Below, piece after piece: positions 29,728 to 46,260 of a DNA stretch of 64,000 bases. Both the position numbers and the translations under genes were made by a program. The notes under the pieces were generated by a model. That model ran no database searches. It was not told where the DNA came from and saw only the letters and a list, made by a program, of their open reading frames with translations. Position 1 is the stretch's first letter. Every line of letters starts with the position of its first letter. Source of the DNA: Giardia intestinalis (taxonomy: Eukaryota); assembly GCA_000002435.2 (NCBI GenBank), contig CM018791.1. One strand, given 5' to 3'.

Positions 29728-29972
29728 TGCTATTATACAACCCAGGCTACAGTTTATGCTTCATCAGCATACATGCAGTAGAGTCTATGCCTTGTGCATT
29801 ACTGTCTGTAGCGCCTACTGGAACCTTTATTTCGAGAAATTCACTTTACTGGAATAGGTAAGTGGATGCGTGACCTATAGTATAGTTGTTGATGTGAGAA
29901 TGCTGCTCTGGTACTGTATCATGTTGTTAGATGACATCTCGCTTACCAGAGAACACTCCTGCTTCTTCTTCG

Positions 29973-31480
29973 TTATGATGCAATAACAGTGATGGCGACA
30001 GCAGCTATTACAATCAGTATAATTGGCACAGAGACTACCGCTGTCGTGGCGCTTTTCAACCTCTTTTCCAGTTTCTTCGATGCACTGCAGATACCATGTT
30101 CGTCTAAGCTGTACCCATCAAAGCATTTAACACATTTATCATCTTTGCATTCTCTGCAACTTATTTCATACTCATACATGCACGTACCGTAGCTTGTTAA
30201 ACAATAACATTCTTCACACTGTAAGCACCTACCGCTTCCAGAGAGAATTCTGCGCCGTTCACAAGCCTCTAAACTACAGCTCCTCACATCACTAAGGCGC
30301 GTACCTGGATTACGCTTTGTACACTATCCATTTTGACAACATTCACAATTATAATTTAGATAGCAGTCGCTGTAACCATGCGTAGGATAAGTTATCATAC
30401 AAACTCCAGGAAGACACGTAGTGCATCCAACACCATCTGCGTAAGACGCACATCTCAGAGGTGTTAGTGATATACAACCAAAAAAGGTAAAAAAACACAA
30501 TTTGCCGTGCATTTAGTACACTTCCTTCCACTGGAGCACTCAGCGCATCCTAGTGTCTCTTTACGCTCACATATTCCATAGGCAGCAAGGCAATACTCTA
30601 CTTCACACTGTGCGCAAGTTCTTTGGTCGGCGCACAACATGCAATGCAGATTTTCTTTTCCAGTACAGGCTAAAGTTCGTAGGTCAAAACAATAACCCTC
30701 ATCACACTCGGTACAATACCCTTCTCCTGCACAAAATGCACAGTGAATAGGAATGTTGACAAGTTATACACATGTTGCTCCATAAGTTGAGTTTTCTAAA
30801 TAGTAACTATCATTATATTGAATACATCTCATTTCACTCCATTGGTAGGTACAATGAGCACAAGCATCGGGACACTTAGTGCATACACCATCAGAATTTA
30901 AGCCATAGCCTGTCACGCACTCCGCACATCATGCATCCCGGACAAGATAAGCAATTCAGAGATTCCTTTAATACGTATTTTTGCTGCTGTTAAGGCAATA
31001 TCTATCCTGACATTGGGTGCATATTCCGCTATTAGGACAACGCCTACAGGATATCTTGCTTAAACGCTTACAAGTGTTGTCACTGATGAGACAGTATCCA
31101 CTTATACATTTGTACACACAATGTTTCCAGGGCAAACTTCACAGTTAAAGGATTCCCTCGCAATACCTTTTCCAGCACTGCTTTTGCATCTGTTCTCTGG
31201 ACAAGGATCCAAGGCAGAGAGTATTGACTCTCCTACTCTGAACGACAGATCTTCTTTGCAGACTCCTTGATTCATCCTGCATCCTTCCCTACATGCCATG
31301 CATCTACTTCTGGCCTACACACCGCAATGTGGTCCACACAAAGTATCGTTTTCACTATTCTCCAAAACCTATGTGCACACCCAGATACCCTCATCGTTCA
31401 TCATGGGTGTCCCCTTTGGACGTTTCTGAACACACTCTGAGTTACCAAGGAGGTCGAGAAAATAGCCATCGATACATCTA
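29973..31480 (-). pseudogene. Degenerate high-cysteine membrane protein (HCMP/VSP-like) gene broken by frameshifts and stops
   Basis: The minus strand reads Cys-rich CxxC/GYC-type peptide in shifting frames across about 1.5 kb (ORFs 31102-31299, 30324-30531, 29973-30287). The last piece ends with a single TM helix and a short tail that is not CRGKA. Confidence 0.5.
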
Positions 31481-33192
31481 AGGCAGACAGTTCCCAAAGG
31501 ATTGCAGAGCTCACAATGCGAGATATCTAGACATAGAGTCGACCTTCCAGCTGATTCGGACAGACATCAGTAACATAGTACGTGAGCAACATCAATCCAA
31601 TGGAGAACATGGTCTTTTTAATTTTGATTATACTTATTAAGAATCCAAATCAAATTAGCAAGGGCTCCGGTCAAACGTTGACACTAAAATCAATGCTCAA
31701 GCTTGTGGCCTCTCTCAGAGACTTGTGCCGGATCTGCTTCCTCCGCGGGTATAGGATCAGATATCTAGATATCCTATGTTCGTCTGCCCTATAATGCCTG
31801 TAGTGTTATAATTTATTACCGATCTACTTTGTCTGCTTGTCTAGCTGTGCTTCACAAATAGACACGGCGTTCGATAGGGATTTTTTTAACAGCGTGTCAT
31901 AATAGTCGCTACTGATTGCAATCCTACACTGTGGTGATTGTGCTTCCTTTGGTCAAATACCGTGTGTAAGAATTCTGCATTAAGGCTAAAACTATATAGT
32001 AGAGATTTCTATAAGGTTGTCTTGTACAATCCACACTCAAAGAATGAGATAGTATCAGCTTCACTTTATATCATATCCGTAGGTGTATCTGGCACCTAAG
32101 GGCTTTGAAAGACTCTTTGATTGTCAAAAATAATCATCTGACAATCACTTGACTATTGGAGCATGTAATTAGTGTAAATAGTGTATATTTCATTTTCATG
32201 ATTTGAAAGGTATTTAGAATACGTTTTAAAGCAGCAACTCTTTTAAATTAGAAAGATATTTTGCTGATTTTGGTTTGACGTATATCACGACAGTCACTCT
32301 GCTGTGCGCACTGTGAATTGCAAACCCCACAGCCTCGAAGCGTTCTGGAGACCAAAGCAGAATTACTCTCGCATTGGTAATAGGGGACCTTGGAGTCCCT
32401 ATAGTAGTAAGCTTTCCTTTCAGAAGCCATCCCTTATGTTAATTAACTGTAATCAGCTACACTATGCATGTTTCAATACTCAACTGAGTCTTCATGTATG
32501 ATCAGGTCAATCTCTGCAGTTAGATAGGCATTTAATAGCACCTGGTGTACTCTCAAGCTTTACACAATCTAATAGTTAATACCACAACATTTGTCAAGCC
32601 TGTGAAAACATTGAAGAACCCACTTTTCATAGACGCTTTTCTACAACCGTTAATGATTTGATCAATACTCACTATAACGTCCCTCTACTACTGTACACCT
32701 GCTGTAATATAAATTTAGTATGACAAAAGCTACCGATGAATGTTGTATATGAGTAGACATCCTCACTCCTTCACCACATCTTTTTTATTGGCAGAGGCTC
32801 GGTCCTTAAGTGAGAGTACTAGTCTATTTCATCCTTGTTATAGAGAAAGTGTAAGCATTATTGCAAACCCAGAGATTGTAATTGACAGGCATATACTACC
32901 TCCATGTCTGCACTCTGGATGCAACAACCACAGCGCAGCTGCATCTCCGATCATTCTGTGCACGCCTTCTGGCACGGGCAGGTGCGCCGGAGGGGGTGTA
33001 CTGCCCACCGCCGAGAAATGGATGAGCTCCTGGTCGGCCCGCCCCGCCTGGAACTTAGAGACCGCCATTCACGGCCGTGAAGAGAGTTCTCGCAAGTAAA
33101 TCTCTCGGGTTGATTCACACGGCGGGTAACCATCCGGTAGAATTCCGTATTGAATTAACTCGCTTAATTAAAAAGTTAGTATCCACGACAAT

Positions 33193-34065
33193 ATGGTGAG
33201 GCCCTGCCTGACCGTGGAAAATCAGTCAAAGGTGCTGCGCTGGCTTGCCACAGAGATCATAAACGCAATCCATCCAGAGGAGACGGTGGAGGACCTTCTT
33301 GCAAACCCGTGTCTGCTCCACTCGTACATGCTCAAAACATCCGTGGACTGGCATTGGATCTCTAACGAGGTTGGCGTGGACGAGAAGAAGGTTTCTCGTT
33401 GGTACTATGAAACGCACCTGCGCCACATCCTAACTATAAAGATGACTAACGAAGACCGTGGAGAGATTCGCAAGATTATCATCAATTGGATCCGCTGCCA
33501 GCAAGTTCCAGACGAGCGGCTTTACCAAGCAATTCATGAGAAGTTTGGAAAGAAGTACTCGCGTCAAGAGCTACGGATGACGTACTACAATATGCTTAAC
33601 AGTCGTTGCATACGGGCCGTCCTTACTGAGTGCAATATTCAGCGTCCGACAAGGCGGAGAAGGCCTCCTGAAACAGAGCGTGCAGGGCTATCTTCCTCGA
33701 CCGTCCTTCACATACCCGGGTATGCTTCCGGTCCTCAACCAGCCCCCTTAGACCATAGAAAGTTGTCCCAGTCAAGTACTCACAAGTATTCTCCAGAAGC
33801 AGCCTCTTTCTCTCAGATTGACGTCAAGGCAGAAAGTGGACTGAATAACGATATTCCAGATGAACCCGTTACCTTTAGTCCTCTTGCATTCCAGAGCATT
33901 GCCCAACAGCAACCGTACATTAAGCTACTCAATCTACAGTCAGTCCCGCTCTCCCTCGATATTAACGGCCAATTAGCATGCATCCCCCTAATCATAGTTG
34001 AGCCAGGAGCCAACATCTGGTCCATTACTCCCAATGAGGAGCCAGTGGGAGGCGCTGGACAGTAG
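33193..34065 (+). CDS. Hypothetical protein with a tandem Myb/SANT-like domain (IR-L copy)
   Basis: 290-aa ORF with two Trp-spaced repeats: DWHWISNEVGVDEKKVSRWYYETHL and INWIRCQQVPDERLYQAIHEKFGKKYSRQELRMTYYNML. These resemble W..IA..LgR...C..rW...L Myb repeats. It is followed by a basic RRRRPP stretch. Confidence 0.55.
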   Translation: MVRPCLTVENQSKVLRWLATEIINAIHPEETVEDLLANPCLLHSYMLKTSVDWHWISNEVGVDEKKVSRWYYETHLRHILTIKMTNEDRGEIRKIIINWIRCQQVPDERLYQAIHEKFGKKYSRQELRMTYYNMLNSRCIRAVLTECNIQRPTRRRRPPETERAGLSSSTVLHIPGYASGPQPAPLDHRKLSQSSTHKYSPEAASFSQIDVKAESGLNNDIPDEPVTFSPLAFQSIAQQQPYIKLLNLQSVPLSLDINGQLACIPLIIVEPGANIWSITPNEEPVGGAGQ

Positions 34066-36684
34066 CGTTCTTTGGTATTGCTCTTCTAACTCATGATAAA
34101 GGATTTGCCGCCTTTTATCTTGCAGAAGACTAGACTTATCTGTACCCCACACTTGATTGCAGATGCAGCAGGACCATGTGCAGGCCATGAAGGTCACGCA
34201 TTGACAAAGCAAACTGGAATTATTCACAGAGGTGGTTTTTGGCAAACTTGTAATCTAGTGGCACGTCATCTTTGGGCTAAGTTGCCTAACTTCTAATCGT
34301 ATATCTACGGCTTCCCTATTTACGCGGTTCTTTGCAGGAGCTAGACCTACTGAAGCATACTTAGCACATAATTCCGCAGATGAGGATACGCGATAATATT
34401 ATCAGCATCCCAATCTCATTCTTGTCAATAACGAATGTATCGATCCACAGATGCTAGTTTCTATCAGCCGAATTAGACTCGCTTAGCAGCCCGTAGAGAT
34501 GATGTAGCTCACCACCGAAGTACTTCCACATCTGCTTTTTTCCGTTTTAGACATAAAGTTGGAACTCATTATTTACCCCGTCAATGATTTTCTGCGTTCA
34601 CTGATGGGTGTATATTATTCTATATTGTCAGTTATCTAGGGACCTCTTTCATAGGAGCGCCACATCAACCCCCTTTATGTTCCTCTTACATTTTATTATG
34701 TGCTTTACATCTTCTTGTCTATCAATATTCACACCCCCATGGATATGCCAGATACATATCTGTATCATATGCTACTGTGATCATAGGTTTGTTGTAAATA
34801 AGGGTGTGATCGGTACCACCACAGAACTCGTTAAACCCTGTCTGCCTTGAGAGTACGCTAATGGGACTACATGCTCAATCTGAGCAGATGTCTGTGGGCT
34901 TGTGTGCTAGCTGGAATAAGATAGGTGACTACTCTGTATGATCATCCTGTTATCATGATTAGGTAGCCGCGAAAGATTAGACGTCATTGCAGGAGCAGAC
35001 AAGGCACTAGGACAGCGATTTGCTTTCCAAGGATGACGTGGATTAATAGGTTAGTAGGCAGTTCTTGGATGCAGGAGTATTAGTGGATTTGTAGACTCGC
35101 GTAGTTATGCATACAGGTCATGGTAGGGGCTCTGGTAATTCTCTGATGGTGGCCCACTTTGGCAAGAGCTCAGCTGGGAAAGGCAAGGCGCTGGACGAGG
35201 ACGCGGAGAAAGTTCGGCACCCCGTGTTCCCACGACGTCTCCGATCGCAGTACTGGCGGGGCCTGACGGCGCTTCTCTTCTTAATTCGGAACGAGTTAAG
35301 GAGTTTCCGCCGTAGGATGGCCGAACTGGCGGCTGAGGGAGCTGTGCGATGTGTCAGAGATTGTTAGAGATTCATACTGTATATTGTGCAATGGCTAACG
35401 TGTATGGGTGTCCCACCGAAGACCCGGTGAAGGATGGCACCGGAGATGAGACAGGATGACCCCTGGTGGAGGAGACCACGGTGCGGGCTTGCCTGCAGAT
35501 GCCGTGGCTAAAATCTCAGCCCGTCCAGGAATCTAACAGAGATTATGCAGCCGGACACTGGGACCTACCGGAGAGCCGCATCGCCCCTGCACGAGCCAGC
35601 AAGCACTGCCTTCGACCCGACCACAGTTGGGAACGCTCATGTCCGTGGATGCCGTCGGTCAGGTCCCTGAAGACCACCCTGCTCACAGCCCCAGGGATCC
35701 CTCTGCAGACTCTGATTTCTATATCCCTGGGGTAGATGTTTGCGGATAGCGGCACAGGGCTCAGCAGAACCGCCAGAAGATCCGCAGCACACTGTCATTA
35801 ACTATAAACGTCTTGCGGTATTCATTCCATGGCTAAGCCACCAATAATGGCACTGGAACTGGAGTAAGACACTTCTAGGGTGCGACTACAGGACCGTGGA
35901 GGAGCTTCCTTCCCACGAAGGAGACCCTGCAGCTAGGGCGTGGTCCATCAACGCTTAGAACTGCACACCTTGGTAGAAGCAGAGCCAAGCCCACACTTAG
36001 AAATCGATGGCTGCCCTCTTGGACCCCGCACATGGTAATAGCTATAGAAAAGAGCTTGGGCAAGGAGATCACGCGGACCAGGTGTACCCGGACTGAGAAG
36101 CGTCTACTTCATCAAGTAACGGTAACCGGTCTATGCACACAGACCATGTTTGGCGGCAAGCTCCCCTGTAGCTCATGTATACACTGCGAACCGCTGCCTA
36201 GAGGCTTGCGTTGGAGATGCTGCAAGACACTAATGGTTGAAAGGTGTGACTAGCCGTTCTTCTAGATATCGTCTCTTTGGATGCGCCGGGTACCTAAGGC
36301 GATAGTCCAGCGCTGCACGCCTTGACTGCCACGGGCCTTGTGCATAGCCGACCAGGTGCCCGACACACGCCGCTTGGGAGTGCCCAGACCACACGGTGCC
36401 GTAATCGGGCTGCTAAGGTGCGAGAGATGGTGCACAGAGGCGCATATCAGAGCCAAGAGTCTGTGTGTCGCCTGCCTCTGGGTGGAATAGTTGTACAATA
36501 GTAGGGGGTGCTCATTGCCATACAGAAGCGGGCACGGCAAAACATGGAGGCGCGGTCCTACCGCAGGATTCGACGGATGCTCGGAGACAGGTGGTCCAAC
36601 GGTTTTATGGAATGACGGCGCAACGGCCATGGAGTGGGCAGGTGCAATAGGCGATGCGTTTACTACCTAAGTACACAGCTAAGT

Positions 36685-36726
36685 CTACGCCTTCCCCCTG
36701 CACAGGAACCACCAGCAGAGGAAGCC
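36685..36726 (-). pseudogene. Orphan VSP 3' fragment (…GFLCWWFLCRGKA, stop and poly(A) signal) at the inner end of IR-L
   Basis: The minus strand encodes the invariant VSP tail and the downstream ACTTAGGTAGTAAAC motif. Upstream of the arm boundary the sequence is not VSP-like. Confidence 0.75.
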
Positions 36727-36987
36727 GACGAGCACAGTGACAGCAATGTACAGGAATGCATCCCGAACAATCATTCCACAAGAGAGGTGCGGTCTGAGTC
36801 TAGCCTCAACTGGTCCTATTTCTATGGAAGTCAGGAGGAACTGCACTGTCAGCTGGCCTCCGGTGGGCGTACTCCTATCTCGTCCTTCTCCAGTCCAACT
36901 GATCAAGGAGAGTAAGAGCGGCTGTCTCTTACTGCTCGCGGTAACACATCAGCCTGACGGAAGAGCAGTGGCATACGAACCCGGCTA

Positions 36988-39804
36988 ATGTTGGTAGGAT
37001 TTCTCTTAGTTTTTGTGGTAACACAGGCCAACTGCGCACAAGAGCTGACCCAGGCAGGCTGCAAGACGTGTGTCGGGGCAGACGCCGCCCAGACGTGTAC
37101 GGAGTGCACAACTTCTGGACACAAGGTACAGCTCGATAAAAGAAGCTGCGGCCCCACCTGCCCGGCGCACTCCACGGCCAGCTCGAACGTCTGCGAGTGC
37201 GACCAGGGATACACGCCCAACGCCGGGAAGACCGCGTGCGAGCCCAATCCCAGCGCGGGATGCGCACAAGAGCTGACCCAGGCAGGCTGCAAGACGTGTG
37301 TCGGGGCAGACGCCGCCCAGACGTGTACGGAGTGCACAACTTCTGGACACAAGGTACAGCTCGATAAAAGAAGCTGCGGCCCCACCTGCCCGGCGCACTC
37401 CACGGCCAGCTCGAACGTCTGCGAGTGCGACCAGGGATACACGCCCAACGCCGGGAAGACCGCGTGCGAGCCCAATCCCAGCGCGGGATGCGCACAAGAG
37501 CTGACCCAGGCAGGCTGCAAGACGTGTGTCGGGGCAGACGCCGCCCAGACGTGTACGGAGTGCACAACTTCTGGACACAAGGTACAGCTCGATAAAAGAA
37601 GCTGCGGCCCCACCTGCCCGGCGCACTCCACGGCCAGCTCGAACGTCTGCGAGTGCGACCAGGGATACACGCCCAACGCCGGGAAGACCGCGTGCGAGCC
37701 CAATCCCAGCGCGGGATGCGCACAAGAGCTGACCCAGGCAGGCTGCAAGACGTGTGTCGGGGCAGACGCCGCCCAGACGTGTACGGAGTGCACAACTTCT
37801 GGACACAAGGTACAGCTCGATAAAAGAAGCTGCGGCCCCACCTGCCCGGCGCACTCCACGGCCAGCTCGAACGTCTGCGAGTGCGACCAGGGATACACGC
37901 CCAACGCCGGGAAGACCGCGTGCGAGCCCAATCCCAGCGCGGGATGCGCACAAGAGCTGACCCAGGCAGGCTGCAAGACGTGTGTCGGGGCAGACGCCGC
38001 CCAGACGTGTACGGAGTGCACAACTTCTGGACACAAGGTACAGCTCGATAAAAGAAGCTGCGGCCCCACCTGCCCGGCGCACTCCACGGCCAGCTCGAAC
38101 GTCTGCGAGTGCGACCAGGGATACACGCCCAACGCCGGGAAGACCGCGTGCGAGCCCAATCCCAGCGCGGGATGCGCACAAGAGCTGACCCAGGCAGGCT
38201 GCAAGACGTGTGTCGGGGCAGACGCCGCCCAGACGTGTACGGAGTGCACAACTTCTGGACACAAGGTACAGCTCGATAAAAGAAGCTGCGGCCCCACCTG
38301 CCCGGCGCACTCCACGGCCAGCTCGAACGTCTGCGAGTGCGACCAGGGATACACGCCCAACGCCGGGAAGACCGCGTGCGAGCCCAATCCCAGCGCGGGA
38401 TGCGCACAAGAGCTGACCCAGGCAGGCTGCAAGACGTGTGTCGGGGCAGACGCCGCCCAGACGTGTACGGAGTGCACAACTTCTGGACACAAGGTACAGC
38501 TCGATAAAAGAAGCTGCGGCCCCACCTGCCCGGCGCACTCCACGGCCAGCTCGAACGTCTGCGAGTGCGACCAGGGATACACGCCCAACGCCGGGAAGAC
38601 CGCGTGCGAGCCCAATCCCAGCGCGGGATGCGCACAAGAGCTGACCCAGGCAGGCTGCAAGACGTGTGTCGGGGCAGACGCCGCCCAGACGTGTACGGAG
38701 TGCACAACTTCTGGACACAAGGTACAGCTCGATAAAAGAAGCTGCGGCCCCACCTGCCCGGCGCACTCCACGGCCAGCTCGAACGTCTGCGAGTGCGACC
38801 AGGGATACACGCCCAACGCCGGGAAGACCGCGTGCGAGGTGGCCTCTAACACGCAGTGTAATACTCCCAACTGCAAGATCTGTGATAACCCCAAAACAGA
38901 CAATGAAATCTGCACTGAATGTAATGACGGCGACTACCTCACTCCAACAAAGCAGTGTACGCAAAGCTGCGGAGCAATAGGAAGCTACTACAACGGAGAC
39001 AAAGTGTGCGAGCCCTGTAATCCTAGCTGTGCTGCGTGCACCACAAAGGGACCAGCGAAGTGCACGCTGTGTCCTCCCGGGAAGAGGCTCCAGTACACAG
39101 ATGAGAACAGTCCATCAAGCGGTACTTGCGTAGATGAGTGCAAGCCCCAGAGTGGAGCTAGCGGATGCGAGACCTGCGGAGCCACCATCGGAGGGACAAA
39201 GTATTGCTCGAAGTGCAGCACATCCACGGAGGTCCCCGTCAACGGAGTCTGTACAGCAGACAATGCCCGCGCGCCCGTATGCTCGAAAAAGGACAATCAG
39301 GGAGGGTGCACTACGTGTGCCAGTGGGTACTTCCGCCAGGACAACGGCTGCTATAAGACTGACAGACAGCCAGGCAAACAGATATGTACACTAGCTGATA
39401 GCAATGGTGGATGTCAGGCGTGTGCCAATGGTCTTCCTCCTAGTTCTTCTGACGTATGCCCCTCGTGTCATTTCACCTGCAAGACATGCTCGACCGCAGA
39501 CACTGCAAATACTTGTACAACGTGTGCAACTGGGTACTATATGGTCGGATCAGCAGCTGGACCATGCACTTCGTGTGACAGCAACAGTGGAAGTGTCAAG
39601 GGAGTTGCTGGCTGCATGAGCTGCGCTCCTCCATCTAATAATCAAGGCTCCGTCCTTTGCTACCTCATAAAGGATACCGGTAGCACCAACAGGAGCGGCC
39701 TCTCCACGGGGGCCATCGTGGGGATCTTCGTCGCAGTCATCGTTGTTGTGGGGGGCCTTGTGGGCTTCCTCTGCTGGTGGTTCCTGTGCAGGGGGAAGGC
39801 GTAG
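36988..39804 (+). CDS. vsp: Variant-specific surface protein (VSP) with a signal peptide, about 8 identical 76-aa Cys-rich repeats, a unique CxxC-rich region, a TM helix and a CRGKA tail
   Basis: The N-terminal signal is MLVGFLLVFVVTQANC. There are abundant CxxC and GGC motifs. The C-terminus is GLVGFLCWWFLCRGKA followed by a stop, then ACTTAGGTAGTAAAC 13 nt later. Confidence 0.92.
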   Translation: MLVGFLLVFVVTQANCAQELTQAGCKTCVGADAAQTCTECTTSGHKVQLDKRSCGPTCPAHSTASSNVCECDQGYTPNAGKTACEPNPSAGCAQELTQAGCKTCVGADAAQTCTECTTSGHKVQLDKRSCGPTCPAHSTASSNVCECDQGYTPNAGKTACEPNPSAGCAQELTQAGCKTCVGADAAQTCTECTTSGHKVQLDKRSCGPTCPAHSTASSNVCECDQGYTPNAGKTACEPNPSAGCAQELTQAGCKTCVGADAAQTCTECTTSGHKVQLDKRSCGPTCPAHSTASSNVCECDQGYTPNAGKTACEPNPSAGCAQELTQAGCKTCVGADAAQTCTECTTSGHKVQLDKRSCGPTCPAHSTASSNVCECDQGYTPNAGKTACEPNPSAGCAQELTQAGCKTCVGADAAQTCTECTTSGHKVQLDKRSCGPTCPAHSTASSNVCECDQGYTPNAGKTACEPNPSAGCAQELTQAGCKTCVGADAAQTCTECTTSGHKVQLDKRSCGPTCPAHSTASSNVCECDQGYTPNAGKTACEPNPSAGCAQELTQAGCKTCVGADAAQTCTECTTSGHKVQLDKRSCGPTCPAHSTASSNVCECDQGYTPNAGKTACEVASNTQCNTPNCKICDNPKTDNEICTECNDGDYLTPTKQCTQSCGAIGSYYNGDKVCEPCNPSCAACTTKGPAKCTLCPPGKRLQYTDENSPSSGTCVDECKPQSGASGCETCGATIGGTKYCSKCSTSTEVPVNGVCTADNARAPVCSKKDNQGGCTTCASGYFRQDNGCYKTDRQPGKQICTLADSNGGCQACANGLPPSSSDVCPSCHFTCKTCSTADTANTCTTCATGYYMVGSAAGPCTSCDSNSGSVKGVAGCMSCAPPSNNQGSVLCYLIKDTGSTNRSGLSTGAIVGIFVAVIVVVGGLVGFLCWWFLCRGKA
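37033..38836 (+). repeat. Tandem array of 7.9 perfect copies of a 228-bp in-frame repeat inside the VSP
   Basis: Period 228 nt. The copies are nucleotide-identical; alternate-frame ORFs are identical in every unit. The last unit diverges at about 38837. Confidence 0.9.
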
Positions 39805-39816
39805 ACTTAGCTGTGT

Positions 39817-39831
39817 ACTTAGGTAGTAAAC
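39817..39831 (+). terminator. Conserved VSP 3' element / polyadenylation signal ACTTAGGTAGTAAAC (contains AGTAAAC)
   Basis: Seen directly 13 nt after the VSP stop codon. The same sequence follows the orphan VSP tail in IR-L on the opposite strand. Confidence 0.7.
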
Positions 39832-42423
39832 GCATCGCCTATTGCACCTGCCCACTCCATGGCCGTTGCGCCGTCATTCCATAAAACCGTTGGACCACCT
39901 GTCTCCGAGCATCCGTCGAATCCTGCGGTAGGACCGCGCCTCCATGTTTTGCCGTGCCCGCTTCTGTATGGCAATGAGCACCCCCTACTATTGTACAACT
40001 ATTCCACCCAGAGGCAGGCGACACACAGACTCTTGGCTCTGATATGCGCCTCTGTGCACCATCTCTCGCACCTTAGCAGCCCGATTACGGCACCGTGTGG
40101 TCTGGGCACTCCCAAGCGGCGTGTGTCGGGCACCTGGTCGGCTATGCACAAGGCCCGTGGCAGTCAAGGCGTGCAGCGCTGGACTATCGCCTTAGGTACC
40201 CGGCGCATCCAAAGAGACGATATCTAGAAGAACGGCTAGTCACACCTTTCAACCATTAGTGTCTTGCAGCATCTCCAACGCAAGCCTCTAGGCAGCGGTT
40301 CGCAGTGTATACATGAGCTACAGGGGAGCTTGCCGCCAAACATGGTCTGTGTGCATAGACCGGTTACCGTTACTTGATGAAGTAGACGCTTCTCAGTCCG
40401 GGTACACCTGGTCCGCGTGATCTCCTTGCCCAAGCTCTTTTCTATAGCTATTACCATGTGCGGGGTCCAAGAGGGCAGCCATCGATTTCTAAGTGTGGGC
40501 TTGGCTCTGCTTCTACCAAGGTGTGCAGTTCTAAGCGTTGATGGACCACGCCCTAGCTGCAGGATCTCCTTCGTGGGAAGGAAGCTCCTCCACGGTCCTG
40601 TAGTCGCACCCTAGAAGTGTCTTACTCCAGTTCCAGTGCCATTATTGGTGGCTTAGCCATGGAATGAATACCGCAAGACGTTTATAGTTAATGACAGTGT
40701 GCTGCGGATCTTCTGGCGGTTCTGCTGAGCCCTGTGCCGCTATCCGCAAACATCTACCCCAGGGATATAGAAATCAGAGTCTGCAGAGGGATCCCTGGGG
40801 CTGTGAGCAGGGTGGTCTTCAGGGACCTGACCGACGGCATCCACGGACATGAGCGTTCCCAACTGTGGTCGGGTCGAAGGCAGTGCTTGCTGGCTCGTGC
40901 AGGGGCGATGCGGCTCTCCGGTAGGTCCCAGTGTCCGGCTGCATAATCTCTGTTAGATTCCTGGACGGGCTGAGATTTTAGCCACGGCATCTGCAGGCAA
41001 GCCCGCACCGTGGTCTCCTCCACCAGGGGTCATCCTGTCTCATCTCCGGTGCCATCCTTCACCGGGTCTTCGGTGGGACACCCATACACGTTAGCCATTG
41101 CACAATATACAGTATGAATCTCTAACAATCTCTGACACATCGCACAGCTCCCTCAGCCGCCAGTTCGGCCATCCTACGGCGGAAACTCCTTAACTCGTTC
41201 CGAATTAAGAAGAGAAGCGCCGTCAGGCCCCGCCAGTACTGCGATCGGAGACGTCGTGGGAACACGGGGTGCCGAACTTTCTCCGCGTCCTCGTCCAGCG
41301 CCTTGCCTTTCCCAGCTGAGCTCTTGCCAAAGTGGGCCACCATCAGAGAATTACCAGAGCCCCTACCATGACCTGTATGCATAACTACGCGAGTCTACAA
41401 ATCCACTAATACTCCTGCATCCAAGAACTGCCTACTAACCTATTAATCCACGTCATCCTTGGAAAGCAAATCGCTGTCCTAGTGCCTTGTCTGCTCCTGC
41501 AATGACGTCTAATCTTTCGCGGCTACCTAATCATGATAACAGGATGATCATACAGAGTAGTCACCTATCTTATTCCAGCTAGCACACAAGCCCACAGACA
41601 TCTGCTCAGATTGAGCATGTAGTCCCATTAGCGTACTCTCAAGGCAGACAGGGTTTAACGAGTTCTGTGGTGGTACCGATCACACCCTTATTTACAACAA
41701 ACCTATGATCACAGTAGCATATGATACAGATATGTATCTGGCATATCCATGGGGGTGTGAATATTGATAGACAAGAAGATGTAAAGCACATAATAAAATG
41801 TAAGAGGAACATAAAGGGGGTTGATGTGGCGCTCCTATGAAAGAGGTCCCTAGATAACTGACAATATAGAATAATATACACCCATCAGTGAACGCAGAAA
41901 ATCATTGACGGGGTAAATAATGAGTTCCAACTTTATGTCTAAAACGGAAAAAAGCAGATGTGGAAGTACTTCGGTGGTGAGCTACATCATCTCTACGGGC
42001 TGCTAAGCGAGTCTAATTCGGCTGATAGAAACTAGCATCTGTGGATCGATACATTCGTTATTGACAAGAATGAGATTGGGATGCTGATAATATTATCGCG
42101 TATCCTCATCTGCGGAATTATGTGCTAAGTATGCTTCAGTAGGTCTAGCTCCTGCAAAGAACCGCGTAAATAGGGAAGCCGTAGATATACGATTAGAAGT
42201 TAGGCAACTTAGCCCAAAGATGACGTGCCACTAGATTACAAGTTTGCCAAAAACCACCTCTGTGAATAATTCCAGTTTGCTTTGTCAATGCGTGACCTTC
42301 ATGGCCTGCACATGGTCCTGCTGCATCTGCAATCAAGTGTGGGGTACAGATAAGTCTAGTCTTCTGCAAGATAAAAGGCGGCAAATCCTTTATCATGAGT
42401 TAGAAGAGCAATACCAAAGAACG

Positions 42424-43296
42424 CTACTGTCCAGCGCCTCCCACTGGCTCCTCATTGGGAGTAATGGACCAGATGTTGGCTCCTGGCTCAACTATGATTA
42501 GGGGGATGCATGCTAATTGGCCGTTAATATCGAGGGAGAGCGGGACTGACTGTAGATTGAGTAGCTTAATGTACGGTTGCTGTTGGGCAATGCTCTGGAA
42601 TGCAAGAGGACTAAAGGTAACGGGTTCATCTGGAATATCGTTATTCAGTCCACTTTCTGCCTTGACGTCAATCTGAGAGAAAGAGGCTGCTTCTGGAGAA
42701 TACTTGTGAGTACTTGACTGGGACAACTTTCTATGGTCTAAGGGGGCTGGTTGAGGACCGGAAGCATACCCGGGTATGTGAAGGACGGTCGAGGAAGATA
42801 GCCCTGCACGCTCTGTTTCAGGAGGCCTTCTCCGCCTTGTCGGACGCTGAATATTGCACTCAGTAAGGACGGCCCGTATGCAACGACTGTTAAGCATATT
42901 GTAGTACGTCATCCGTAGCTCTTGACGCGAGTACTTCTTTCCAAACTTCTCATGAATTGCTTGGTAAAGCCGCTCGTCTGGAACTTGCTGGCAGCGGATC
43001 CAATTGATGATAATCTTGCGAATCTCTCCACGGTCTTCGTTAGTCATCTTTATAGTTAGGATGTGGCGCAGGTGCGTTTCATAGTACCAACGAGAAACCT
43101 TCTTCTCGTCCACGCCAACCTCGTTAGAGATCCAATGCCAGTCCACGGATGTTTTGAGCATGTACGAGTGGAGCAGACACGGGTTTGCAAGAAGGTCCTC
43201 CACCGTCTCCTCTGGATGGATTGCGTTTATGATCTCTGTGGCAAGCCAGCGCAGCACCTTTGACTGATTTTCCACGGTCAGGCAGGGCCTCACCAT
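42424..43296 (-). CDS. Hypothetical tandem Myb/SANT-like protein (IR-R copy, identical 290 aa)
   Basis: The translation is identical to that of 33193-34065. Confidence 0.55.
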   Translation of the reverse strand: MVRPCLTVENQSKVLRWLATEIINAIHPEETVEDLLANPCLLHSYMLKTSVDWHWISNEVGVDEKKVSRWYYETHLRHILTIKMTNEDRGEIRKIIINWIRCQQVPDERLYQAIHEKFGKKYSRQELRMTYYNMLNSRCIRAVLTECNIQRPTRRRRPPETERAGLSSSTVLHIPGYASGPQPAPLDHRKLSQSSTHKYSPEAASFSQIDVKAESGLNNDIPDEPVTFSPLAFQSIAQQQPYIKLLNLQSVPLSLDINGQLACIPLIIVEPGANIWSITPNEEPVGGAGQ

Positions 43297-44039
43297 ATTG
43301 TCGTGGATACTAACTTTTTAATTAAGCGAGTTAATTCAATACGGAATTCTACCGGATGGTTACCCGCCGTGTGAATCAACCCGAGAGATTTACTTGCGAG
43401 AACTCTCTTCACGGCCGTGAATGGCGGTCTCTAAGTTCCAGGCGGGGCGGGCCGACCAGGAGCTCATCCATTTCTCGGCGGTGGGCAGTACACCCCCTCC
43501 GGCGCACCTGCCCGTGCCAGAAGGCGTGCACAGAATGATCGGAGATGCAGCTGCGCTGTGGTTGTTGCATCCAGAGTGCAGACATGGAGGTAGTATATGC
43601 CTGCCAAGACAGCACACGACTTCCCTACAGCTCCTTGGCGTGTCGGCGCGTGAAGACAGAGGGCCAGCCAGGGTGAATGTCGTGGCCGGCCAGCTGCACA
43701 TCAGCTTTAGCTCACGGCCCAGAGAGCATTCAGTCGCCTGTTACCGGACGGGCCTGTCTGGTAGATCGTTGGCCCAGACCGCGGTGTTCGAGTCGTCTGG
43801 GCACATGGGAGAGCCCTGCCTTCGTCTGCTGTGTGTGGTCTCTTCAACGATGCGCAGAATGTGGGTTGCGCGACATCCAGACCGTCGCAGCCTGCGTCTG
43901 GTGGGCCCTGCGCTGTGCCGTGGTTGAGCATGCTACACGCTCTAGACATGACGGTCTCGTCACTGACCAGGCTCCGGCCATTAGCTGCTCCTACCGACCA
44001 CTCTTCGCCAACCACCAAGCAAGCCGGGGTCTCCAGTCC

Positions 44040-44849
44040 TCAACCCTTACTGGGGCTCGCATCAGCGCACCCAGGCACGCCTCCGTAGCCCGCAGGGGGG
44101 AAGCATGGCACGCATGCGAATGCAACGGGCGACCCGAGGAGACCCTGGCCCGTCTGGAGCGGGAGGACGCCAGGCCCAGGAACGACCCCGGGCGGGAGGG
44201 CGAGGACGAGGCACCCCGGCGCGTGCGGGGGCAGAAGCGCAGAGACCGCGCCCGGGGCCACAAAGACCGGCCCCCCGACGGGCGGCACCAGCGGAGGCGC
44301 GGCGCAACCAAGAACGCAGGGGGGCGGGGGAGAGGCCGCCACAGGAGATGCCCCCTCCTCCTGCTTGGCCGCCCTCGGGCCGTATGTGCGGCGCGGCAGC
44401 ACCACCCCGTGCTCCTCCAGGGCGGCGCGGACGTCCTGGGTGCGGAGCGCGTTGTTGTACGTCATCCGCAGCTCCTGGCGCGGATACTTCGCCCCGAAGC
44501 GCTCGTGGACCCTGCGGTAGAAGTCCGGGCCCAGGATGCTCCGGTCCCTGACCCCGGCGATGATCATCGCCTTGATGGCCCTGCGGTCCTCGCCAGTCAT
44601 CTTCACGTTGAGGATGCTCCGCGAGTGCGTCTCGCGGTACCAGTGGTAGATCCTGCTCCGGTCCTCGGACAGGGCGCGGGCGATCTTCTTCCAGTCGATG
44701 GCCGTCCGGAGCACGTGCCGGTGGAGGAGCAGCGGCCGCCGCGCGAGGCTCTCGGCCGTCTCCCCCAGCCGCCGGGCAGCGACGACCTGCTTCGCGAGCT
44801 CGAGCAGAACGGAGGCGCGCGTCTCCGCCGTCATTGCCCCAGAGCCCAT
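44040..44849 (-). CDS. Diverged, GC-rich paralog of the IR-borne Myb/SANT-like protein
   Basis: 269 aa. Alignable blocks include LLHRHVLRTAIDWKKIARALSEDRSRIYHWYRETHSRSILNVKMTGEDRRAIKAMII and ...FGAKYPRQELRMTYNNALRTQDVRAAL, against the 290-aa protein. It lies in a GC-rich segment. Confidence 0.55.
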   Translation of the reverse strand: MGSGAMTAETRASVLLELAKQVVAARRLGETAESLARRPLLLHRHVLRTAIDWKKIARALSEDRSRIYHWYRETHSRSILNVKMTGEDRRAIKAMIIAGVRDRSILGPDFYRRVHERFGAKYPRQELRMTYNNALRTQDVRAALEEHGVVLPRRTYGPRAAKQEEGASPVAASPPPPCVLGCAAPPLVPPVGGPVFVAPGAVSALLPPHAPGCLVLALPPGVVPGPGVLPLQTGQGLLGSPVAFACVPCFPPAGYGGVPGCADASPSKG

Positions 44850-46260
44850 CCGATAGAAGCAGCGATAAAACTAAAAACAGACCAACGAATAATGTGAAAT
44901 TAAATATGTACAGGCCTTGCACAAAAGTTTTAGCGGGTGTTTGTTGCCTGCCTGCCCCGGTCCGTCGGGCGAGCAGGGCGCCCTCACCCGGGCCATCGCC
45001 GCAGTACGAGCTGGCTTAGGCCGCCACACAGAACAGACCGCTTTGCACACGGCGGCGTCGGGGTTGATGTATTGATCGGAGTTTTTTGGTATTGCCGGGA
45101 ACCCCCGCCCTCGGCCACCAGGGAGAGCCGCACTCTGCGCAGCCCCGGTTTGTCTGCATATGCCCAGAGCTCTGCGGAGGCGGGCAGGCTGGGACCGTCC
45201 TCCTCGTTCGGGGCATCGCCGACGACGAGCTGTTGCCTGCGGCCCGCGGGGTCTTCCGCTCTGAGAGGGGCCACCGAGTGTCGTGGGCCGCAGCGCTCTG
45301 CAAGGCCTGCACACGACCAGAGGCTGCCAAGTTTTTTGAGCAACTGGCTCTGGCGCGGATTCTGCGGACACCTGCTGCCGGCCCAGTCTACAGGGGCGCC
45401 CGCGTGTCTACTGTGGCCTGGCGTGCGTTTCTGCGCGTCCTCCTGCGGCGGCTCCCCTCGTGGCGCAGGAAGCCCTGCCTGTCCTCTCCCACCGGGTTCT
45501 CCCGACGTGCTCTCCACCGCACCCAGCCGAGGTTCCAGCGGACAAAGGAGCGGCATGACCCAATCAGTCGCCAGATTACATTGTGCTCTGGAGCTGCGAA
45601 TCTTGCTGGCATCTCATGCGACAGTGGCTCTGGGTGTGCCCGCTCAGCAGCAGCTACCTCATCCACAGAGTGCTGATGCAGATATTATGCGCTACGTATC
45701 AGTGACCACAAGGGCACCGATAGACAGGGTCTCAGCCTCAGTGCACAGCCAAGGTTGCCAAGCATAGCGAGGCTTACATACTGAGCATGGGTCCGTGCCC
45801 CGCGTGGTCTTCTTAAGAACTAGTGCATGAGTGCTCGTGAGACGACGCCCCATATGAGGCGGGCTATCCGTTGTACGCGAAGCACAGCACAGCAGAAGTG
45901 GGTGATGCAGGGACCAGAGGGGGTGCTTCAGCACATCAGTCGTCGGCCCCTCTGCCTTCTGTCGCGCCTGATGGACTCTCCTCTATTATCGCAACTCGGT
46001 CGCGGTTGTCTGAGGAGAGGACTAGGTACTCAGCAGACAATGGAATCGCGTGGCCTGGACGCGATTTCGTGATGGCCAACATGGGTTATCAGGCTGGCTG
46101 TGGTCTGGATATGTGGTACAGCTTCCTTCACTCAAGCAGGTACGTAGCATTTTCACTGGTGTATATTGCACAGCCCCTTGGCACCTGTACCCGAGGCCAA
46201 CACCGCACCAGCTTTCTGATCGCTAGGACTGCCCGGGTGCGGACAAGGTGCTTCGTTCAC

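Follow-up and report, generated by a model that had tools for sequence, protein, structure and literature searches.

The question raised by this locus is why the units of a tandem array inside a VSP gene have exactly the same nucleotide sequence. Uniformity of this kind could be an artefact of the assembly, the result of one recent amplification, or the product of recombination that keeps the units alike. The array lies in a 64-kb stretch of Giardia intestinalis WB chromosome 3, referred to here as the window, which was taken from the PacBio reference of 2020; seven neighbouring proteins had exact matches in WB, and the array was read from this single consensus assembly of a tetraploid.

The VSP gene and its repeat array

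The initial annotation assigned the array to a VSP gene, and the assignment was upheld. The intact coding sequence in the ORF list (36988..39804, plus strand) specified 938 amino acids, ended in ...GFLCWWFLCRGKA followed by a TAG stop codon, and matched the Pfam VSP family (PF03302) with 315.1 bits and an E value of 8e-94, compared to a cut-off of 31.4. The ATG at 36988 was read directly in an initiator-type context, TAATGTT (36986..36992, plus strand); TAATGTT/CAATGTT is the vsp initiator motif in the table of Adam et al. 2010 (PMC2996952). The protein had 120 cysteines (12.8%) and 30 CXXC motifs, a cysteine content within the approximately 11-13% expected for VSPs and comparable to the range in the same table (PMC2996952).

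The first 15 residues, MLVGFLLVFVVTQAN (36988..37032, plus strand), formed a hydrophobic leader, a candidate signal peptide. Alignment showed that the WB leader lacked 42 nt, a unit-tail segment, present in the A2-type orthologs. VSPs without a SignalP hit were classed as pseudo-VSPs by Xu et al. 2020 (PMC7000408). The array was followed by a non-repeated ectodomain (VASNTQCNTPNCK...), a transmembrane segment and the CRGKA tail (38839..39801, plus strand, from the ORF list), and the membrane-anchor C-terminus read ...VVVGGLVGFLCWWFLCRGKA, ending in CRGKA and the stop. Just past the stop codon, ACTTAGCTGTGTACTTAGGTAGTAAA contained the polyadenylation signal AGTAAA (39825..39830, plus strand), which we take to be the conserved vsp 3' signal. 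The upstream part of the VSP cassette (36733..36987, 255 nt, plus strand) was delimited by homology to an independent paralog contig, L012, that began exactly at 36734. Judged from these sequence features, the gene is an ordinary repeat-bearing VSP gene of WB. The exact protein was not found among 15 billion proteins that included its neighbours, so that the distinction between VSPs and pseudo-VSPs may be relevant here, and the gene was not found in the supplement of PMC11169602. The closest homolog was just 65% identical, and consequently no alternative copy-number allele of the gene was retrieved.

Tandem Repeats Finder reported a period of 228, 7.9 copies, 100% matches, 0% indels and a score of 3612 at 37033-38838, the sole tandem array in the window that scored 80 or more. 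The initial annotation had described eight identical 228-bp units ending at 38836. Base-by-base comparison confirmed seven full units (37033-38628), all identical, while the eighth (38629-38856) was identical only over its first 210 nt and then diverged, the last 18 nt of the unit being missing. The exact period-228 run (37033..38838, plus strand) thus comprised 7.92 units with no mismatches or indels and ended two nucleotides later than claimed. The units began at 37033, 37261, 37489, 37717, 37945, 38173, 38401 and 38629. Chance need not be considered for a self-match that is exact over 1,578 nt at a constant offset.

The array began 45 nt after the ATG, and each unit consisted of 76 codons in frame. 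Re-translation reproduced the 76-residue sequence originally given, and the CxxC-type motifs ascribed to it were present: the unit had ten cysteines, two CXXC motifs (CKTC and CTEC), one CXXXC (CGPTC) and one CXC (CEC). Three ORFs that run across the array on its antisense strand (592-670 aa) were rejected as genes, since they arise by repetition of a unit that happens to have no antisense stops; 4.4% of codon permutations likewise yielded such ORFs.

A two-unit AlphaFold model had a mean pLDDT of 94.1. The best PDB structure matches in Foldseek were weak (TM-scores of about 0.2, used to describe the type of fold and not to claim membership) and comprised the EGF-like domains of Pfs25, the furin-like repeats of R-spondin and the cysteine-rich domain of HER3. 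Pfam gave an hEGF match, and a sequence search of the PDB gave no matches. By predicted fold type, the 76-residue, 10-cysteine unit is an EGF-/furin-like disulfide-rich module. By analogy with the published vspA6 work, the array would give the ectodomain the form of a longer rod, built of repeated modules and displaying the same epitope eight times.

Repeat units in the A2 isolate DH and in other VSPs

A contig of the A2 isolate DH (L014) carried, in order, the uniqueR genes, one of the arms that flank the VSP cassette (see below) and the 5' end of the VSP, and is the orthologous locus. Within it, a unit tail and one unit, 97.2% identical to that of WB, were followed by the start of the next unit (...GKTACE-P), where the contig ended. 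This 454 contig therefore stops inside the array, yet its unit-to-unit junction shows at least two copies in DH. Over the first 210 nt of the unit, WB and A2-type copies were separated by about seven substitution steps (six nonsynonymous, one synonymous), which gives a dN/dS above 1 based on only about seven changes. These approximately seven differences were common to every WB copy, whereas there were none among the WB units. Two metagenome contigs (L011 and L012) had one unit each, possibly collapsed, so that the copy numbers seen were 7.9 in WB, at least two in DH, where the contig ends in the array, and one in the metagenomes. In the latter, a direct repeat of 16-17 nt, CGGGAAGACCGCGTGCG, lay on either side of the single unit and is plausibly a substrate or footprint of unequal exchange. 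The JGI metagenome contigs gave no match to a 40-mer conserved in WB, DH, L011 and L012.

Thirty WB vsp genes have been catalogued with gene-unique tandem repeats of 105-516 bp in approximate copy numbers (PMC2996952). They include vspA6/CRP170 (about 22-25 copies of 195 bp), vspC5 (about 25 of 105 bp) and CRP136 (22 of 120 bp); allelic copy-number variation has been reported for vspA6 and vspC5, and the vspA6 repeats are immunodominant (PMC2996952). The gene described here shares with these the short leader, the in-frame repeats, the non-repeated cysteine-rich region and the conserved transmembrane-CRGKA end, although its leader of 45 bp is shorter than the 66-99 bp of the three illustrated examples (PMC2996952). 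Four of the catalogued genes have 228-bp repeats (PMC2996952). However, no entry fitted the length, cysteine count or CXXC count of the gene at the copy numbers tried: the TR228 entries vsp3 (451 aa), vsp27/CRP65 (417 aa) and vsp173 (543 aa, 69 cysteines, lacking the initiator motif) were each rejected at 2, 3 and 4 units.

The initial annotation considered the perfect identity of the copies to be the notable feature, a view that the relatives do not bear out, as identical units prevailed in all of the repeat-bearing relatives that were examined. In the WB paralogs P0002 (1602 aa) and P0003 (1029 aa), 16 of 16 and 12 of 12 units of 74 aa were identical, as were 10 of the 11 units of 75 aa in P0001 (1229 aa), the identity in P0001 and P0002 being known at the protein level only. 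The first unit of P0001 differed by one residue, a difference kept by the WB assembly, which argues that unit variants were not erased. Nor is the pattern confined to one technology, as would be expected of an assembly artefact: the Sanger-era VSPs AS7 (5/5 units of 75 aa) and O97448 (4/4 units of 76 aa) also had identical units, and a 454 contig of a DH paralog (L013) had a 2.4 x 228 nt array with 100% identity. L013 had amplified a different module, the homolog of the WB unit being single there, and the position within the terminal unit at which the array ended on its 3' side varied from paralog to paralog. Identity of units within a gene is the norm for repeat-bearing VSPs.

The gene shares with P0001, P0002, P0003, O97448 and AS7 the architecture of one sub-family: a leader, identical units that measure about 75 aa and have a common 10-cysteine pattern, the sequence ...ASNTQCNTPNCKxCDNPKTD... 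that follows them, and a C-terminal region that is 64-89% identical, whereas the inter-unit linker PNPSAG is peculiar to the WB gene and its A2 ortholog. The non-repeated C-terminus was 89% identical to that of P0001, compared to 52% for the units of the same protein. The repeats were thus uniform within the gene (100%) but different between genes, the identity to the units of P0001-P0003 being 52-58% at the protein level. Tandem-repeat surface antigens such as the Plasmodium circumsporozoite protein and the products of the Candida ALS genes are also kept uniform by concerted evolution. These, too, are exposed antigens whose in-frame repeats are the same within a gene but have diverged from one gene or lineage to another; the proteins, however, are unrelated, and what is repeated in the VSP is an entire disulfide-rich domain and not a short peptide. 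Taken alone, the array adds little: VSPs with uniform units in variable copy number have been known since the 1990s, and a genome-wide catalogue of them appeared in 2010.

Origin of the uniform units

The best explanation, and in our judgement a very probable one, is that this repeat-bearing WB VSP has an array kept uniform by recombinational turnover that was already present before the A1/A2 split. Turnover by homologous recombination would outpace the accumulation of point mutations and thereby leave the units identical. It probably proceeds by unequal exchange, either between sister chromatids or between alleles, by replication slippage and by gene conversion from unit to unit. Because the DH ortholog has a 97% identical unit in at least two copies, the array predates the split. 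The WB copies were closer to each other than to the DH ortholog and the array occurred in both lineages, so that the lineage differences must have spread to, or been re-amplified into, all of the WB copies. The uniformity in WB fits both continuous concerted evolution and a contraction to a single unit with later re-expansion. Recombinational homogenisation or recent turnover, in line with the very recent expansion or concerted evolution proposed initially, is the best reading.

It is quite unlikely that a single-copy module was amplified once, very recently and in WB, with no continuing homogenisation. L011 and L012, with exactly one unit between direct repeats of 16-17 nt, could represent the state before such an amplification, and the differing array edges of the paralogs, together with the other module amplified in L013, point to independent amplifications. 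However, the unit-to-unit junction in DH places at least two copies outside WB, and a de Bruijn assembler outputs one unit for a collapsed perfect loop. Moreover, in sample ERZ18534468, the coverage of the VSP contig was 18.9, compared to 27.95 for the two-copy arm contig; this exceeds the expected half and weakly suggests roughly 3-5 units.

That the units are heterogeneous or of another number, and were forced into eight identical copies by assembly or polishing, is highly improbable: the array is known from one consensus, for which Xu et al. 2020 used Quiver and Illumina pile-up correction (PMC7000408), and Adam et al. 2010 cautioned that assembly may condense vsp repeat numbers (PMC2996952), but the former report 200x PacBio coverage with a read N50 of 12.7 kb, which spans the 1.8-kb array many times, and only 50 SNPs and 85 indels changed by Illumina genome-wide (PMC7000408), while the DH ortholog contig stops inside the array as expected for indistinguishable units.

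For the same reasons of coverage and read length, under-counting in the window is unlikely. The initial concern about short-read assemblies was justified, the 454 contig of DH ending inside the array and the two metagenome contigs showing one unit. Together, the array and the flanking arms broke or collapsed every non-long-read assembly examined; at loci of this type, neither the VSP repertoire nor the repeat numbers obtained from such an assembly are therefore reliable.

The inverted repeat and the orientation of the cassette

The whole VSP cassette was found to form the 3,024 nt between the two arms of a perfect inverted repeat; the arms, of 3,851 nt each, are 100% complementary with checked boundaries. 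The left arm (32882..36732, plus strand) ended at the cassette, and the right arm (39757..43607, minus strand) began 48 nt ahead of the stop codon of the VSP. A remnant VSP tail (MIVRDAFLYIAVTVLVGFLCWWFLCRGKA and a stop; 36685..36774, minus strand) faced away from the start of the VSP, and the left arm ended on its inner side with the last 48 nt of this tail. Each arm contained a 5S rRNA gene (Rfam RF00001), at 35209..35328 on the minus strand (88.3 bits, gathering score 38) and at 41161..41280 on the plus strand, and an identical 290-aa ORF, GL50803_00116968 in the left arm, with no Pfam domain (33193..34065, plus strand; right-arm copy 42424..43296, minus strand). The two ORFs have accessions KAE8302796.1 and KAE8302798.1, and in the old assembly had accessions in two numbering series, XP_001704500.1 and XP_001706333.1. 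The two series are read as two contigs, between which the old assembly broke at this locus. A PacBio palindrome artefact was rejected, as the arm ORFs had separate accessions there and the arm edges are exactly where independent contigs of DH and of metagenomes begin or end. Three metagenomes had contigs that consisted of an arm alone and shared its outer edge. The inverted repeat is conserved in A2-type strains.

The arms were also homogenised, being 100% identical within WB and approximately 96-96.7% identical to the A2-type arms. Array and 3.85-kb inverted repeat are thus uniform in WB but about 3-4% diverged from A2-type strains, so that homogenisation can be dated against the A1/A2 split, and the locus is a clean worked example of the process.

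In WB, the 5' end of the VSP was joined to the kinase-side arm, whereas in the DH contig L014 it was joined to the arm beside a 1,051-aa GTPase ORF (PF05879 RHD3_GTPase). This opposite orientation, seen in one contig, may reflect an inversion that is real or a path that was chosen arbitrarily in assembly; the other DH contig breaks off exactly where the arm has its edge, and the path through L014 may therefore be arbitrary. One feature of an invertible segment, long identical inverted arms around a unique segment, was present. Since the cassette is the spacer of the inverted repeat and the inner ends of the arms are VSP 3' tails, it may flip by recombination between the arms, and WB and DH, or cells of one culture, may carry opposite isomers.

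RNAi-type silencing has been proposed for vsp genes. In a read-through transcript of the cassette, the 5' end would bring an antisense VSP tail and the 3' end a sense tail, the two pairing over at least 48 bp, and RNA with such paired tails could feed silencing of this type. The combined proposal, that the cassette flips, that antisense-tail RNA feeds silencing and that the array and arms mark a regulatory recombination hot spot, is speculative and on balance unlikely. If it were true, the perfect array and perfect arms would mark a hot spot with a regulatory role rather than neutral turnover.

The locus was absent from the examined part of the table of inverted vsp pairs of Xu et al. 2020 (PMC7000408). 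It resembles the identical inverted vsp pairs of the vsp1267 type, of which 14 were described by Adam et al. 2010 (PMC2996952) and 19 by Xu et al. 2020 (PMC7000408), in having a perfect inverted duplication with a boundary near a vsp and 2-4 kb between the copies. In contrast to those pairs, the duplicated arms here are the flank of the VSP (the 290-aa ORF, the 5S rRNA gene and the 48-nt VSP tail), with only one VSP, which forms the spacer.

The tandem array and the identity of its units

A single array with a score of at least 80 was found by Tandem Repeats Finder in the 64-kb window, at 37033-38838, with a period of 228, 7.9 copies, 100% matches and no indels. Base-by-base comparison showed that units 1-7 (37033-38628) were identical and full length and that the eighth was identical over its first 210 nt and divergent thereafter, so that the exact run, 37033-38838, comprised 7.92 units. 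The perfect tandem array described in the initial annotation was thus confirmed, as was the exact identity of its units, but the eight units reported there are seven full units and one truncated unit, and the array ends at 38838 rather than 38836. The 76-aa translation of the unit was also borne out by direct translation; it has 10 Cys, with two CXXC, one CXXXC and one CXC motif.

One possibility is that identity was forced on the units, or a wrong majority copy number produced, during assembly. The WB assembly was obtained from 200x PacBio data (read N50 12.7 kb) with HGAP and Quiver, and Illumina data altered just 50 SNPs and 85 indels genome-wide (PMC7000408). An artifact is unlikely because the 1.8-kb array is easily spanned by such reads and because a one-residue unit variant of the WB paralog P0001 was retained in the same assembly; the scarcity of Illumina corrections also argues against it. 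Allelic variants in the tetraploid would be invisible to the assembly.

Perfect identity had been singled out as the notable feature of the array, a view that was rejected since every relative examined has identical units. In the same assembly, 10 of the 11 75-aa units of P0001 were identical, the first differing by one residue, as were all 16 units of the paralog P0002 and all 12 of P0003. The Sanger-era sequences AS7 (5/5 units), O97448 (4/4) and XP_001705986 (35-aa units) gave the same result, and a VSP paralog located at the end of a contig in the 454 assembly of the A2 isolate DH (L013) contained 2.4 x 228 nt with 100% identity. Identical units are the rule among all the relatives examined. 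Thirty WB vsp genes have repeats, which are gene-specific and 105-516 bp long (Adam et al. 2010, PMC2996952); their copy numbers are approximate, and the number of copies varies between alleles of vspA6 and of vspC5 (PMC2996952). The array adds one more member to this well-known class.

The VSP gene and its inverted-repeat setting

The array lies in frame in a VSP ORF of 938 aa (36988-39804, + strand; Pfam VSP match, 315 bits). The gene looks intact, with an initiator-type TAATGTT at the ATG, a hydrophobic leader of 15 aa, a non-repeated Cys-rich region of 315 aa that begins CNTPNCK directly after a 6-aa linker, VASNTQ, a membrane anchor with the terminus CRGKA, and AGTAAA 20 nt 3' of the stop codon. 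Seven neighbouring ORFs were exact matches to Giardia intestinalis WB C6 proteins (KAE83027xx-28xx; PacBio reference, Xu et al. 2020, PMC7000408). The exact 938-aa VSP was absent from a 15-billion-protein collection that includes all the neighbouring proteins of this GenBank assembly, its best homolog was 65% identical, and no entry of the 2010 vsp catalogue (PMC2996952) was matched to it. The protein may have been annotated as a pseudo-VSP or left without annotation; VSPs lacking a SignalP match were demoted by Xu et al. (PMC7000408). All three antisense frames were open through the array (36903-38964, - strand). The resulting ORFs of 592-670 aa were rejected as antisense genes; they are a mechanical outcome, obtained equally with 4.4% of the unit's codon permutations.

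A perfect inverted repeat, whose 3,851-nt arms lie at 32882-36732 and 39757-43607, encloses the VSP cassette as its 3,024-nt spacer, a setting of more interest than the array itself. Each arm has one copy of a 290-aa ORF, GL50803_00116968, and a 5S rRNA gene (35209-35328, - strand; 41161-41280, + strand; Rfam 88.3 bits each). The VSP is thus neighboured by two of the reference's ten 5S genes, and short-read Logan contigs break at the 5S gene (35236). The old assembly was probably broken at the locus, because two accessions belonging to different numbering series of that assembly (XP_001704500.1 and XP_001706333.1) exist for the arm ORF, which we read as two old contigs.

Both arms terminate on their inner side in the final 48 nt of a VSP. 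In the left arm these lie within an inverted VSP tail remnant of 29 aa, MIVRDAFLYIAVTVLVGFLCWWFLCRGKA (36685-36774, - strand), directed away from the VSP start 213 nt downstream and shared by the A2-type contigs L011 (metagenome) and L014 (DH). A read-through transcript would carry both antisense and sense VSP 3' ends.

The inverted repeat is real and conserved in A2-type strains, judging from three metagenomes with arm-only contigs whose outer edge is as in the window, a metagenome contig linking the left-hand genes to an arm, and a DH left-hand contig (L025) that stops exactly at the arm edge. The inner edge lies at 36732/39757 in WB vs 36676/39813 in the A2-type contigs. The WB arms are identical to each other and about 96-96.7% identical to the A2-type arms (divergence about 3.3-3.9%), and therefore the arms have been homogenised too. 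In one isolate, a short-read Logan contig of 47,325 nt (L028, SRR3177950) extends from the left-hand genes across the outer arm edge and has its own variant of the 290-aa ORF; perfect arm identity is therefore not universal among isolates. Among the WB-type runs (L001-L010), contigs with this ORF begin at 33001, which is 119 nt into the arm.

Probable turnover of the array and exchange within the gene

By its gene order, L014 is the orthologous DH locus: 9.4 kb of right-hand genes (97.3% identity) are followed by an arm, the inverted VSP tail, the 255-nt upstream region and the VSP start. Beyond the start are a 37-nt unit tail, one unit (97.2% identical to WB) and the beginning of the next (...GKTACE-P), where the contig ends. 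Two or more units are therefore present in DH, and it was the array that brought the 454 assembly to a halt, in agreement with the assembly difficulty initially anticipated.

The WB and A2-type units are separated by about seven substitution steps over the first 210 nt, six nonsynonymous and one synonymous, and the WB state is present in every WB copy. Such a pattern is what concerted evolution leaves behind or, equivalently, contraction followed by re-expansion, and it upholds the homogenisation mechanism initially proposed. Between paralogs, the units were 52-58% identical and the C-terminal region up to 89%, and the position of the 3' array edge within the last unit differed from gene to gene. 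In L013 a different module was amplified; the module homologous to the window unit was single (90.8% over 120 nt). The gene-specific edges and the other module in L013 point to repeated, independent amplification on a shared backbone.

The metagenome contigs L011 and L012, both A2-type, have one unit with the direct repeat CGGGAAGACCGCGTGCG on both sides, which represents an allele with a single unit or else a loop that collapsed. Coverage in the L011 sample (27.95 for the two-copy arm contig, 18.86 for the VSP contig) weakly suggests roughly 3-5 units.

The gene is a mosaic, because comparison with the A2-type contig shows more divergence in its C-terminal 963 nt (88.8% identity, dS 0.32) and in the 255 nt upstream (86.6%) than in the unit (97%, dS 0.02) and the arms (about 96%). 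Module and arms thus look orthologous, and the remainder has been exchanged. The homology of L012 to the window begins exactly at the cassette edge, 36734. In L014 (AHGT01000059.1) the VSP 5' end adjoins the arm of the right-hand genes, on the side of a 1,051-aa GTPase ORF (PF05879 RHD3_GTPase), whereas in WB it adjoins the opposite, kinase-side arm. Either the cassette has been inverted between the arms, or the assembly followed an arbitrary path where the repeat had collapsed.

The repeat module and neighbouring regions

A confident AlphaFold model of two units (mean pLDDT 94.1) predicted a short helix followed by β-hairpins in each. PDB matches were weak (E ~4e-4 to 1e-2, TM ~0.2) and comprised Pfs25 EGF-like domains, R-spondin furin-like repeats and the HER3 cysteine-rich region; a Pfam hEGF match was also present in the protein. 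We infer that the array may form a rod of disulfide-rich modules displaying one epitope eight times. Immunodominant VSP repeats were reported for vspA6 (cited in PMC2996952).

A block of 65.6% GC at 43677-45800 contains a 269-aa ORF, GL50803_0061066 (44040-44849, - strand), that is 42% identical to the 290-aa arm ORF over 149 aa and has no Pfam domain. It has at least seven near-identical WB copies on four contigs, including another duplicated pair, GL50803_0060974/d60974, between whose accession numbers a single gene likewise lies. About 3.4 kb of low GC (29728-33192, 42-45%), located between the kinase gene and the 290-aa ORF, has no ORF of at least 120 aa, which fits the gene-poor VSP surroundings described by Xu et al. 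2020 (PMC7000408).
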